This document shows, piece by piece, positions 4,132-12,217 of a DNA stretch of 44,763 bases. A program made the position numbers and the translations under genes. The stretch is from a virus. Positions within the stretch are counted from its first letter, which is position 1; every line of letters begins with the position of its first letter. The notes beneath the pieces are model-generated. The model was not told the origin of the DNA, ran no database searches, and saw only the letters and a program-made list of their open reading frames with translations. Where the stretch lies: the UHGV virus genome UHGV-0246887; one strand, 5' to 3'.

Positions 4132-5218
4132 TCAATATATGGCGGATCGCATGATCCGCCGTCACATCTTCACCCAGCGCCTGAGCAATGACCAGGCGCG
4201 GAGGGTGCTGGCTATGTGGGAGAAGTTCCGGCCCACGTTACTGGGTAAGCTGACCGAGTTACTTGATGGCAAAAAGTCCATGAATAACAAAGCACTTACC
4301 ACACTGTTAACGCAACTCGACAAGACCGTCAAAACGGAACTGCGCACCGAGTTTAAGGCGTTGGCTGAAAGCCTTCAGGAGTTCGCCGACACCGAGGCTG
4401 ATTATCTCGCCGACACATTAACGGCAGCGATCCAGCCGGTAGTCGCCGTACCGGCGGTCGAGGTGGTTGGCGTAGTGACCGGCGCGCAGATCGCAGCAAC
4501 GGCAATGAAAAACCCGTTCCAGGGTAACACCATGATGCAATGGCCGGATTCACTTTCAGAGTGGACAAGGACGCAGATCGGCAATCAGGTGCGCGCCGGA
4601 TTCATCCAGGGCAAGCCGACTATGGAAATTATCGCGGACGTGAGGCGCGCGCTCGGCGGTCGTAGTGCGCAAGCAATCTCAAGCGTTGTTAAGTCCGCAG
4701 TCAACCACTATGCGGCGACCGCCCGCGAATTAATGGTGAAAGCTAATGACGATATTCTCGAAGGTCGCCAATGGTTGTCCACATTGGACACTCATACTTC
4801 CCCTATGTGCCAGCTACGCGATCGCCTGTTTTATCCTGTTGACGTCACTCCCGACACCAAAGGAAAACGCGGCGGGAAAGTGGTGGCGGGATCACAATAT
4901 GGCGCTGGACCGGGCAAGCTGCATTATTGCTGCCGTTCGACGGAGACGTGGAAAGTCAAAGGTATGGAAGATTGGCCCAGTGGTAAGCGTCCGGCACTGA
5001 AGGCTGACGCAGGCAGATTGCTGAGTGAGCAGGTAGACGCGCAGACTGATTTCTTCTCATGGGTGCAGCGCCAGCCGCGCCATATCCTGGAGGAGTTATA
5101 TGGAGTGCAACGCGCCGACCAGATTATGCGCGGCGTGAAAGTGCCGAAGATGTTTACCGATTCTGGCGAACTGATGACTATTGCGCAGCTTAAAAACCGG
5201 GGGTTATGGCGTGATTAA
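4115..5218 (+). CDS. Head morphogenesis / minor head protein (SPP1 gp7 or Mu F-like)
   Basis: 367 aa ORF overlapping the portal stop; conserved position after portal. Confidence 0.6.
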   Translation: MAKTINQYMADRMIRRHIFTQRLSNDQARRVLAMWEKFRPTLLGKLTELLDGKKSMNNKALTTLLTQLDKTVKTELRTEFKALAESLQEFADTEADYLADTLTAAIQPVVAVPAVEVVGVVTGAQIAATAMKNPFQGNTMMQWPDSLSEWTRTQIGNQVRAGFIQGKPTMEIIADVRRALGGRSAQAISSVVKSAVNHYAATARELMVKANDDILEGRQWLSTLDTHTSPMCQLRDRLFYPVDVTPDTKGKRGGKVVAGSQYGAGPGKLHYCCRSTETWKVKGMEDWPSGKRPALKADAGRLLSEQVDAQTDFFSWVQRQPRHILEELYGVQRADQIMRGVKVPKMFTDSGELMTIAQLKNRGLWRD

Positions 5219-5540
5219 ATATGCAGCAATCGGACTGGTTATCGGTCTGGTGGTAGGATTCTGGCTAGGTGACTCCTATCGTGCTGGCGTAGTGGCGGAG
5301 GCGGCGCAAGAAGCGCAAGCCGAAGCCCAACGGCAGCAAACTAAAGTTATTGAGCGCTCCGTGCAGGCCGAACAAGCCCGCGACGTAGAATACCGGACTA
5401 TAACGAAAGAGGTTGTTAAATATGTTACGCGCCCTAACCGCCCTGATTGTAGTTTTGATGCTGAGCGCGTGCGGATCAAGCAACGTGCCGTTGATGCCGC
5501 TAACGGAGTCGGCACTGCGTCCGCCGTGCAAGTTCGATAA
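5211..5540 (+). CDS. Putative i-spanin (Rz-like), GTG start
   Basis: N-terminal transmembrane helix (IKYAAIGLVIGLVVGFWLG) followed by Ala/Gln/Glu-rich helical region; C-terminal region resembles Rz (ANGVGTASA); contains an embedded out-of-frame lipoprotein gene. Confidence 0.45.
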   Translation: MIKYAAIGLVIGLVVGFWLGDSYRAGVVAEAAQEAQAEAQRQQTKVIERSVQAEQARDVEYRTITKEVVKYVTRPNRPDCSFDAERVRIKQRAVDAANGVGTASAVQVR

Positions 5541-5652
5541 CCCGTCCGCGGACCCCGACGAAGATTTGATGATTGACGTGAAAAATATGGAATGCGGCGC
5601 GAAGCTAAGGGCGCAAGTGCTGGAGTTGCAGCAAATAATTAAGGGGCCGTGA
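5422..5652 (+). CDS. Putative o-spanin (Rz1-like outer-membrane lipoprotein)
   Basis: Signal peptide with lipobox LSAC-G (MLRALTALIVVLMLSACGSS), proline-containing mature part; starts in the +1 frame inside the i-spanin candidate; RBS AAAGAGG. Confidence 0.5.
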   Translation: MLRALTALIVVLMLSACGSSNVPLMPLTESALRPPCKFDNPSADPDEDLMIDVKNMECGAKLRAQVLELQQIIKGP

Positions 5653-5669
5653 TGGCCCCTTTTTCTTTA
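5641..5669. terminator. Bidirectional rho-independent terminator
   Basis: GC hairpin AGGGGCC-gtgat-GGCCCCT followed by TTTTCTTT; lies between convergent genes. Confidence 0.55.
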
Positions 5670-5705
5670 GCGCGGAATGCCGCCACCAATAGGCCGCTTT
5701 GTCAG

Positions 5706-6218
5706 CTACAAACGCCTCGGCATGATAACAAGGAAGGCCCCGCCTTTGAACAGCACACGTGTCGCATTGTCGGCCCCCTGGAATTCCAGTTTTAAGCTCT
5801 CAACCTTACGGTCGAACAATTTAGCAATTTTGCAGGCGTCGGATAGGTATTCCCCTTTAAACCCGATAGCCTCCACTTTAGCGCTGGTGAACGACGAAAC
5901 TCTACGCCAGTCGGGGAATCGGCCGTCTACGTTCTCCATGGGCAGGGTCCCTATTAATACGTCTTTACTATCAAAGAACGCTGCGGAGGTGTCATCTATG
6001 TTGCAGTATTCGAATTTAGTAGGTAAGCGGCCTCTAATTGATACTATTTTACTTTCACCTTCGGGTACAACCGCAGACCCACAGAACAAACGATGTCCGT
6101 CGGAGGCCACGATGAATCCTTTCTCGTCGAAAAATACACCATTCAGATAGTATCGCACGTCATTAGTTGCGGCGCACATCATAGCGGCTTTAAGATCGGC
6201 ATAGTTAACTTTAATCAT
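5706..6218 (-). CDS. Truncated DNA polymerase III beta sliding-clamp (DnaN)-like protein
   Basis: Translation contains DVRYYLNG, IVASDGHRL, VDGRFPDWRRV and C-terminal FLVIMPRRL, matching conserved DnaN segments (domain II start, domain II end, extreme C-terminus) but only about 170 aa; GAGGA RBS before ATG at 6218. Confidence 0.7.
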   Translation of the reverse strand: MIKVNYADLKAAMMCAATNDVRYYLNGVFFDEKGFIVASDGHRLFCGSAVVPEGESKIVSIRGRLPTKFEYCNIDDTSAAFFDSKDVLIGTLPMENVDGRFPDWRRVSSFTSAKVEAIGFKGEYLSDACKIAKLFDRKVESLKLEFQGADNATRVLFKGGAFLVIMPRRL

Positions 6219-6234
6219 TGTCATTTCCTCGTTG

Positions 6235-6266
6235 TTGGTGTGCAACCAATATAGCGCAACCAATTC
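6235..6266 (-). promoter_or_regulatory. Promoter-like region with two ATTGGTTGCA motif copies upstream of the clamp-like gene
   Basis: Minus strand reads TTGCAC-N18-TATATT with motif copies in the spacer and at +1; the same 23-nt string GCTATATTGGTTGCACACCAACA recurs at about 40638. Confidence 0.45.
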
Positions 6267-6366
6267 CAGCAGTGCAAGCGAATTTTGCGATTATTTTTAT
6301 CGCTGATAATATTAAGGCGTGAAGTCAAGCGGGTGGCCCGCTTTGCCACAATCCCAGGGGGATAGC

Positions 6367-7068
6367 ATGAAACTTACTAAAGCAGAATATGACGCGTTGC
6401 CGGAAGGTATGAAGGCGCTTTTTGTTGCCGATGGCGACGGGTATAAATCAACTTTCATGACCGCAGAAGAAGTACAGGCGGAGATCAAGGGTCTGAAAGA
6501 CAACAACGCGAAGCTGGTGAGCGAGAAGAAAGCAGAAGCTGAACGCCGCGCCGAAGCCGAGCGACTTGCGAAAGAGAAAGAGGAAGCCGCTGCGCGCAAA
6601 AATGGCGACCTCGAAGCGATCGACAAGTCCTGGAAAGATAAGTTTGCGAAACACGAAGCAGACACATCGGGAAAAATCGAAGCCTACCGCAAGCAGATCC
6701 ACGACCTAACCATCGGCAGCGCCGCCAAAGACCTGGCGTCGAAGCTGTTCGGTAAGAATGCTGGGATCATGCAACGCCACGTAATGGACCGCCTGACGCT
6801 GGAAGACGGCGAAGACGGCAGTCTGAAAGTGCGTGTCTTGCAGGATGGCAAACCGTCCGCGCTGACGATGGAAGAGCTTGAAAAAGAGTTCCGTAATAAC
6901 GCCGATTTTGCGTCCGTCCTGGCTGGCACGCCAGCAGGCGGCGCGCCTAGCAAACCGACGCAGGTTGTCGAAGATGTGAAGTCGAAAATCACGATGGGCC
7001 ACAGCTTCGGTATCACTGACCTTACGAAACAGGCTGGTGAAATCATCGCTAAGATGGGCGACGAGTAA
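6367..7068 (+). CDS. Scaffolding protein (putative)
   Basis: Highly charged, coiled-coil-like sequence (AEAERRAEAERLAKEKEE); located between head morphogenesis and major capsid genes; RBS AGGGGGA. Confidence 0.55.
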   Translation: MKLTKAEYDALPEGMKALFVADGDGYKSTFMTAEEVQAEIKGLKDNNAKLVSEKKAEAERRAEAERLAKEKEEAAARKNGDLEAIDKSWKDKFAKHEADTSGKIEAYRKQIHDLTIGSAAKDLASKLFGKNAGIMQRHVMDRLTLEDGEDGSLKVRVLQDGKPSALTMEELEKEFRNNADFASVLAGTPAGGAPSKPTQVVEDVKSKITMGHSFGITDLTKQAGEIIAKMGDE

Positions 7069-11833: not shown

Positions 11834-11980
11834 TGAAGCGAGACAAACGGGACGTCCCGTTTTGTCCCGCCCCTGTAAAACTGCATATCTACTCACTTCC
11901 ACTGCATAAACTCAAAACGGGACAAGCGGGACGTCCCGTTTTGTCACGCCCTGTAAATATGCATACATATGCAGATTTCG
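11834..11980. repeat. Palindrome/iteron-rich non-coding region (AAACGGGACGTCCCGTTTT twice; CTGTAAA-N-TGCATA twice)
   Basis: Direct reading: perfect 18-19 bp palindromes and CGGGAC(A/G) hexamers. Confidence 0.6.
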
Positions 11981-12152
11981 TGCATAAACCAAACGGGACA
12001 AAAAGCGGGACAAACACGAGGCGGGACAAAGCGGGACAGCACCCCCGTCCCGCCCCGGATGGCGCGGCTTCCAGAGGAGCGGGACAGCGGGACAGCACCC
12101 CAGTCTTTCAGACTAGACGGGGGTCAACGGCCCCCCTCGTCTGAGACTGAAT
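11981..12152. repeat. Copy A of a ~172-bp duplicated element with six or more CGGGACA iterons and a 3' GC hairpin
   Basis: Near-identical to 40291..40463; the ORF-track translations of 11833..12144 and 40199..40453 share an identical peptide string. Confidence 0.8.
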
Positions 12153-12217
12153 AAGGTTTGTTTTGAAATCGCTGATACAATATCCATCGGCAACTGCATA
12201 AAAAAGGGGACTGCATA

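Follow-up and report, generated by a model that had tools for sequence, protein, structure and literature searches.

A short DnaN homologue of a Dhillonvirus-type phage keeps the docking pocket of the sliding clamp and lacks its native ring contacts

The virus genome UHGV-0246887 (44,763 nucleotides; "the window" below means this whole stretch) is the complete genome of a coliphage, a Dhillonvirus-type siphophage, and it encodes on its minus strand a small protein, here called the mini-clamp, that is homologous to DnaN, the bacterial beta sliding clamp. The mini-clamp agrees with DnaN in its fold and in the pocket that receives clamp-binding motifs (CBMs), and fails to agree in architecture, family-model thresholds and dimer interface. 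Judged from alignments and a structural model, it comprises the whole of domain II, minus one channel helix, and the second half of domain III. Such a protein probably captures clamp-binding proteins rather than sliding on DNA. More specifically, we propose that it is a free-standing CBM receptor: a docking groove without the ring, expressed from a promoter of its own and vying with host beta for client proteins. We hold this reading tentatively, as a serious possibility. A 2-kb test region of the genome is 90-97% identical with Shigella phage EP23, Escherichia phage TheodorHerzl, Sodalis phage SO-1 and many others, and the gene order agrees with that of TheodorHerzl. Mini-clamp residues are numbered throughout on a 172-amino-acid (aa) form.

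The first-pass annotation of this genome, made from the letters alone, had described a truncated DnaN-like minus-strand open reading frame (ORF) of ~170 aa, and motif comparison, homology searches and predicted fold all bear this out. With the translated dnaN gene of Escherichia coli K-12 as reference, the segments it had quoted proved as close as claimed: DVRYYLNG is identical at 8 of 8 positions, VASDGHRL matches VATDGHRL at 7 of 8, VDGRFPDWRRV matches VDGRFPDYRRV at 10 of 11, and VIMPRRL matches VVMPMRL at 5 of 7. A phmmer search against the PDB aligned residues 12-114 with residues 140-252 of E. coli beta (E 7e-7), and a profile built from 43 short phage homologues scored 111 bits against E. 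coli DnaN; taken singly, the protein stays below the thresholds of Pfam DNA_pol3_beta_2 (PF02767; 18.9 bits, cut-off 27) and TIGR00663 (20 bits versus 137.65). The match to PHROG 3007 is full-length (E 1.3e-53), with residues 3-172 aligned to positions 2-186 of the 190-position profile. The AlphaFold2 (AF2) model, with a predicted local distance difference test score (pLDDT) of 94.8 and a predicted template modelling score (pTM) of 0.90, displays the repeated beta-alpha-beta-beta-beta motifs of the clamp fold, and Foldseek against the PDB returned top structural matches that are all sliding clamps (E 1e-7). On this combined evidence from sequence and model, the similarity to DnaN is well above chance.

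Compared with E. coli beta (PDB 2POL/1MMI), the mini-clamp is 170 rather than 366 aa long, under half the length of a clamp as had been stated; domain I, one channel helix and the first half of domain III have no counterpart in it. The three-domain architecture of ~366 aa is thus not that of the mini-clamp, whose 170-172 aa align with domain II and half of domain III. The earlier parsing, an N-terminal half of domain II fused to a C-terminal half of domain III, has to be revised in its first part, since domain II is present as a whole apart from its second helix (alpha2), which lines the DNA channel in beta. Here hmmalign places a 6-residue deletion, and DSSP run on the AF2 model finds no helix between strands 59-63 and 73-76; a short loop takes its place, whereas more distant family members retain the channel helix. 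The remainder, residues 112-172, matches the second motif of domain III: against E. coli residues 305-366 its sub-profile aligns in full, at 22.4 bits, and against residues 245-309, the first motif, it scores 5.1 bits on a fragment only. The elements IGF(N/K)..Y..D and V(I/V)MPxRL align between the mini-clamp and domain III. Domain I and E. coli residues ~251-309 are missing.

In E. coli beta, the CBM pocket is formed by R152, L155, T172, G174, H175, R176, L177, P242, R246, V247, V360 and M362 in subsite I and by H175, N320, Y323, V344, M362, P363, M364 and R365 in subsite II, and the LF plug of delta, a subunit of the clamp loader, needs subsite I alone (PMC11139829). All segments that contribute to this hydrophobic pocket between domains II and III are found in the mini-clamp. 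Of its 18 residues, 14 are identical to E. coli beta, versus 33 of 138 (24%) at the other aligned positions (Fisher p 1.2e-5), with 11 of 12 identical in subsite I and a conservative T>S change at the twelfth. Across 43 family members the pocket columns have a mean conservation of 0.73 versus 0.41 for the rest (p 5e-6, with the N320 and Y323 equivalents mis-mapped by one residue); R24, L27 and P104 are invariant, and G43, M168 and P169 exceed 90%. Within DVRYYLNG, the D, the R, the second Y, the L and the N are invariant in these 43 sequences and the remaining three residues are at least 90% conserved. Given that clamp folds tolerate near-total sequence divergence, with PCNA and gp45 appearing as structural matches at 5-14% identity, the retention of these residues points to selection on the pocket.

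The contacts that close the ring have fared differently from the pocket. Mutation of I272/L273 renders beta monomeric (PMC11139829), and the title of PDB entry 3PWE names a cross-linked R103-I305 pair of beta. In the mini-clamp the head-to-tail dimer interface is missing, as the first half of domain III, with I272/L273 and I305 in the deleted ~251-309 segment, and domain I, with R103-L108, are both absent. For this reason the suggestion in the first-pass annotation that the protein carries the domain-III interface, and could cap host beta monomers, is not supported. Poisoning of the host clamp, whether by such capping or through mixed rings, is in our estimate quite improbable: every one of these interface residues is absent, and the conserved residues of the family map to the pocket, not to the sheet edges.

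In the mechanism we propose, domain II and the last motif of domain III would together supply every segment lining the CBM groove, allowing docking of the QL[SD]LF type, with the native ring-forming contacts deleted from this pocket module. Transcribed from its own sigma70-like promoter, antisense in the late-gene block, the gene would provide an accessory factor, expected to be soluble, either monomeric or a small oligomer, and to bind proteins that carry CBMs. Strict CBM patterns (Q[LIVM]x[LM]F and a hexameric form) gave one match in the six frames of the window, in a non-gene frame, and a looser pattern applied to 61 heuristically selected ORFs found no N- or C-terminal motif and internal matches at chance level (e.g. 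QLEVF and QLNLY). By these patterns, no phage protein carries a convincing CBM. Since no phage partner is evident, host proteins would be the likeliest clients, namely clamp-loader delta, Pol III alpha, Hda, Pol II/IV/V and MutS/MutL. Acting as a competitor or decoy for host beta, the mini-clamp may weaken host replication or repair while the phage uses its own family-A polymerase. Competition for clamp-binding partners had been raised in the first-pass annotation, and since no part of the mini-clamp is better conserved than the CBM pocket, it is, of the functions proposed, the one that agrees most closely with the evidence. The analysis shows homology, fold, the parts kept and lost, conservation of the pocket, dispensability and cassette behavior; peptide binding, client identity and the effect on the host are what we infer.

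Several points weigh against this proposal. Subsite II is partly diverged, with 5 of 8 residues identical and the changes N320>K, V344>D and M364>R, and the close TheodorHerzl homologue carries V247>F and D173>N. The pocket residues are also the most conserved of DnaN overall, and part of the enrichment is simply where similarity is easiest kept. A dN/dS (nonsynonymous to synonymous substitution rate ratio) of 0.34 between the mini-clamp and its TheodorHerzl homologue is moderate constraint only, and on this comparison selection on the gene is purifying without being strict. Titrating Pol III alpha with a decoy would work against those relatives whose phages may depend on the host polymerase, which argues for selective clients or for an adaptor role. 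Lastly, a tetramer of three-motif protomers would contain 12 motifs, as a clamp ring does, so a ring of a new kind is conceivable.

The first-pass annotation had offered, as an alternative, a processivity factor for the phage polymerase, which we find doubtful. Serving the family-A polymerase, the protein would have to assemble into a homo-oligomeric ring of a new kind (e.g. the tetramer) or act as a tether without a ring, resembling UL42/UL44. The phage replication set comprises the family-A polymerase, a DUF2800 nuclease, an Enc34-type single-stranded DNA-binding protein, an SNF2 helicase, a primase-helicase and Dam; a clamp loader was detected neither among the replication proteins scanned nor in the annotation of the sibling phage Pandora71, and PolA and the other phage proteins are without terminal CBMs. 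Pandora71 has a replication module with ~92-94% nucleotide identity to that of the window, yet a six-frame search of its genome found no mini-clamp (best E 0.34), and the mini-clamp allele occurs in only 16 of 159 matching Dhillonvirus-type records. The mini-clamp is therefore dispensable within the genus, and the presence of the same replication genes without it argues that it is not part of the replisome. Moreover, the protein has lost the native interface segments as well as one helix that faces the DNA. The mini-clamp (19 kDa) has an isoelectric point (pI) of 8.3, but those of the family range from 4.8 to 10.3, making a conserved basic, DNA-binding face unlikely. Linkage to the polymerase gene was seen in none of the clades examined; in a lambdoid prophage with relatives in its early-left accessory region, no polymerase gene was seen within the 16.6 kb examined.

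Alternatively, the pocket may serve an adaptor that brings to phage DNA, or to a phage protein, a host factor with a CBM (e.g. Pol I, ligase, Pol III or MutL), or that couples late transcription to replication, which we regard as unlikely. The pocket evidence is shared with the competition reading, and Mu C provides a precedent in using beta via CBMs for late transcription (PMC12867686). The gene is also embedded in late or structural gene blocks of unrelated phages: a homologue stands in reverse orientation, alone or in a short unit, among the structural genes of five phages of other groups (Kagunavirus Snoke, Skatevirus Skate, Burkholderia myophage Bcep781, Shewanella phage 1/41 and Vibrio pYD38-A), and in further lineages its neighbors are early genes or genes of DNA metabolism, or it belongs to the early-left accessory region, as in a lambdoid prophage. 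The tails of distant relatives, described below, could form a second interaction surface; the mini-clamp of the window, however, has no tail or second domain with which to bind anything else, and its dispensability within the genus also counts against an adaptor. Nor did clustering of the ORFs of 80 IMG/VR loci, drawn from 14 mini-clamp clades, reveal a conserved phage partner gene; an HNH homing endonuclease was the only neighbor to recur in four clades (adjacent on the same strand in two). In Skate (L004 4927-6531) and Vibrio pYD38-A (L007 2241-3765) the mini-clamp is the last gene of a co-oriented unit, after genes for ~270-aa and ~57-aa proteins; the ~270-aa protein of Skate is a ParB-HTH/KorB-domain protein, and this unit is a possible functional partner in that clade only.

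Homologues of the mini-clamp are widespread. A profile search yielded 376 representatives at 50% identity (E<=1e-30), and among the best 150 of these, 149 are 159-271 aa long and one is 410 aa, all but one spanning essentially the whole profile. By tblastn the mini-clamp was found in 245 phage records, with hosts that include Salmonella, Escherichia, Klebsiella, Vibrio and Burkholderia, while BFVD holds many viral proteins of 180-250 aa with the same fold (TMq 0.8-0.86), including those of Rhodococcus, Gordonia and Bacillus phages. Among complete E. coli genomes, 59 of 5,426 carry a prophage relative of 188 aa (e.g. NZ_CP060075.1 2047695-2048201); these are labelled "hypothetical protein", as is the relative in a Citrobacter farmeri prophage (L012 8001-8567), which adjoins a Bro-N gene in the early-left region between repressor and integrase. 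No family of the PADLOC defense models matched the mini-clamp at E<=1.

Database names for the family are "DNA polymerase III beta subunit", "sliding clamp" or, via PHROG 3007, "RusA-like Holliday junction resolvase", the last on RefSeq phage records such as NC_016566 EP23p08, NC_054639 gp41 and NC_004333 Bcep781-15. The Bcep781 record bears the remark "DNA Pol III b subunit fragment", and the truncation has thus already been noticed by annotators. We considered the resolvase label as a lead and rejected it: no RusA or nuclease Pfam match was found at E<=10, the top structural matches are all clamps, and the label appears to be a propagated mis-annotation. A functionless, decaying dnaN fragment would account for the truncation itself and for the dispensability of the gene, but hundreds of diverged full-length members share the same architecture, the dN/dS value speaks for constraint and the fold is modelled at high confidence. 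That the gene is such a relic, or encodes a resolvase, is in our view very improbable. Our literature search on short phage clamps found annotation-level mentions and no functional study, and the sole paper discussing such a gene restates the textbook function of the clamp.

Distant members of the family differ from the mini-clamp of the window at the C-terminus, where 113 of 191 (~59%; P0025-P0193) continue for 10-165 aa past the MPxR strand. Trp is 5-fold enriched in these tails, 73 of the 113 containing it in a P-x-W-[AVLF] motif ~8 residues downstream; 46 of the tails end in Ala-Ala and 66 in Ala. The tail motif of one member (P0037, residues 196-223) is modelled by AF2 as a short helix (pLDDT ~80), which suggests that this tail docks on the body of the protein; for the PxW tail, roles as pseudo-ligand, partner motif or degron are conceivable. 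For the phage and prophage family as a whole, which would be large and ancient, the notion of an excised docking pocket, with members acting as soluble mimics to which host clients of the clamp (delta, alpha, Hda, translesion polymerases and MutS/L) are drawn, is a possibility we entertain with more reserve than the proposal for the single protein. If it holds, the family would represent a new class of host-replisome and repair takeover factor. Within it, relatives whose PxW tails end in Ala-Ala would be variants that regulate themselves or are tagged for degradation. A full domain might also be rebuilt by two half-domains related by a two-fold axis, giving a three-domain crescent with two pockets.

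The gene occupies an exchangeable cassette. The breaks in homology between the window and Pandora71 coincide almost exactly with the mini-clamp coding sequence (CDS), and at this slot Pandora71 has a gene with an Nmad5 domain (PF18757, E 1e-53) in place of the mini-clamp. The slot of EP23 holds the mini-clamp and then Nmad5, and that of CHD5UKE2 a 330-nt gene, Nmad5 and the mini-clamp, with the annotators' remark "possible moron". Across Dhillonviruses the variants are thus the mini-clamp alone, Nmad5 alone, both in either order, or an additional 330-nt gene, all with the same conserved upstream region before and the same terminator after; outside the window the slot lies at L002 3167-4065, L014 967-2325 and L015 972-2678. 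The Nmad5 protein was examined as a hidden clamp relative and is not one. In two IMG/VR loci unrelated to these (L066 and L071), an Nmad5 homologue is also found, at a distance of ~5 kb from the mini-clamp.

Within the window, the mini-clamp is the lone reverse gene between plus-strand spanin genes and a plus-strand scaffold gene, in accord with the first-pass annotation (Table 1). The i-spanin gene and its embedded o-spanin gene lie inside the head-gene block directly before this antisense slot; in Pandora71 the holin and endolysin genes are more than 6 kb from the spanin gene, so that the lysis cassette is split. In the ORF listing the longest mini-clamp frame is 5706..6263 with a TTG start at 6263, which is unlikely to be used. 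Given the Shine-Dalgarno sequence 6 nt before the ATG at 6218, and since the homologues are mostly 170 aa long with an N-terminus of MIKV, the CDS is most likely 5706-6218, with the ATG at 6224 (172 aa) as an alternative start. The Shine-Dalgarno GAGGAA is kept in four of five phages irrespective of the downstream gene.

Table 1. Coordinates in the window of the mini-clamp gene, its parts, its putative signals and its neighbors
Feature	Position	Strand	Basis or remark
Mini-clamp CDS (most likely form), 170 aa and TAG stop at 5706-5708	5706..6218	-	Ribosome-binding-site spacing; starts of homologues
Shine-Dalgarno GAGGAA, 6 nt upstream of ATG 6218	6225..6230	-	Sequence; five-phage alignment
Equivalent of DnaN domain II (E. 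coli ~129-250; residues 3-111)	5892..6218	-	phmmer alignment of 12-114 to beta 140-252
Equivalent of the second beta-alpha-beta-beta-beta motif of domain III (E. coli ~310-366; residues 112-172), with native C-terminus MPxRL	5709..5891	-	Sub-profile
DVRYYLNG motif (R152 and L155 pocket equivalents)	6138..6161	-	Conservation in 43 sequences
SDGHRL motif (equivalents of T172, G174, H175, R176, L177)	6087..6104	-	Pocket alignment
DGRFPDWRRV connector (equivalents of P242, R246, V247)	5898..5927	-	Pocket alignment
VIMPRRL C-terminal strand (equivalents of V360, M362, P363, M364>R, R365)	5709..5729	-	Pocket alignment
Exchangeable cassette, sole part of the region without Pandora71 homology	5684..6225		blastn breakpoints 5683 and 6226
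Promoter-like element: TTGCAC (6277-6272), 18-nt spacer, TATATT (6253-6248)	6248..6277	-	Read from the sequence; putative
GC-rich hairpin AAGGGGCC-N-GGCCCCTT, terminator score on both strands	5641..5661		Between o-spanin end and mini-clamp stop
Spanin genes	5181-5652	+	Directly before the antisense slot
Scaffold gene	~6367-7068	+	Other neighbor of the antisense slot

The first-pass annotation had also claimed promoter-like motifs and a bidirectional terminator for this gene. The terminator stands: the hairpin scores on both strands, and in Snoke and Skate bidirectional terminators are annotated at the same position after the mini-clamp homologues. As for the promoter, a consensus scan upstream of the mini-clamp returned none above threshold, but the element TTGCAC-N18-TATATT is conserved. 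The upstream region is near-perfectly kept in five Dhillonviruses, with the differences concentrated in the 18-nt spacer between TTGCA(N) and TATATT, and a conserved leader followed by GAGGA lies downstream of TATATT. Such spacer-concentrated variation is the pattern expected for a sigma70-type promoter, and we regard the element as a candidate promoter. The minus-strand leader and divergent intergenic region (6231-6366) contains two repeats that the five phages all keep, a tandem one of ATTGGTTGCAC that overlaps the putative -10 and an inverted one, TTGGT/ACCAA, at the predicted 5' end of the transcript; together they could be an operator. An ORF of 42-45 aa here (6221-6349, minus strand), annotated in Pandora71, was rejected as a gene: relatives differ by a 1-nt indel that disrupts its frame, although their DNA is ~95% conserved there, so the ORF is probably not a gene. 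Elsewhere in the genome, a near-identical direct repeat of ~175 bp is found at 11961-12155, just upstream of the tape-measure gene, and at 40291-40465, after the primase-helicase gene, and both copies are also present in Pandora71. Each contains 6-7 iterated GCGGGACA(A/G) motifs plus an inverted copy, with a GC-rich hairpin at the end, and could be an iteron-like or regulator-binding array. An Rfam scan of the whole window gave no match.

The nearest natural truncation is E. coli beta*, which Skaliter, Paz-Elizur and colleagues reportedly described in 1996 as a UV-induced 26-kDa internal product of dnaN consisting of domains II and III. Both proteins are N-terminally truncated and begin at the boundary of domains I and II; beta*, in contrast, keeps a complete domain III and has reported clamp activity, whereas the mini-clamp has lost another half-domain together with the interface residues. 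In its proposed function the mini-clamp most resembles, by analogy, the phage inhibitors of the clamp axis, with mimicry instead of clamp binding. N4 gp8 targets clamp-loader delta. Twort Gp168 inhibits the host clamp by binding its channel (PMC8565349; PDB 7EVP). The mini-clamp would likewise be a small phage protein aimed at the host clamp/loader axis, but those two are unrelated to DnaN and bind delta or the channel, whereas the mini-clamp would mimic the docking site. The herpesvirus proteins UL42, UL44, BMRF1 and PF-8 are clamp folds that work without a closed ring, trimeric or dimeric, and in these the polymerase tail binds the equivalent groove; the UL42/UL44 type is marked by two complete clamp domains and a basic DNA-binding face. 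Mu C and the T4 gp45-gp33-gp55 system exploit clamp-CBM contacts outside replication, which may be compared with the location of the mini-clamp gene in the late-gene block; unlike the mini-clamp, however, they use the intact loaded ring, and we saw no link between the mini-clamp and RNA polymerase.

The CBM pocket of beta, a target for antibiotics, is the hub at which all bacterial factors of replication, translesion synthesis and mismatch repair are coordinated. If phages have repeatedly kept a minimal pocket without the ring, hundreds of database entries that now name processivity clamps or RusA resolvases would need correction. The mini-clamp would then also offer a compact natural scaffold (19 kDa and apparently monomeric) for studying CBM ligands and for screening them. 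Finally, phages would in that case have found a simple natural route to disturb the entire clamp interactome.
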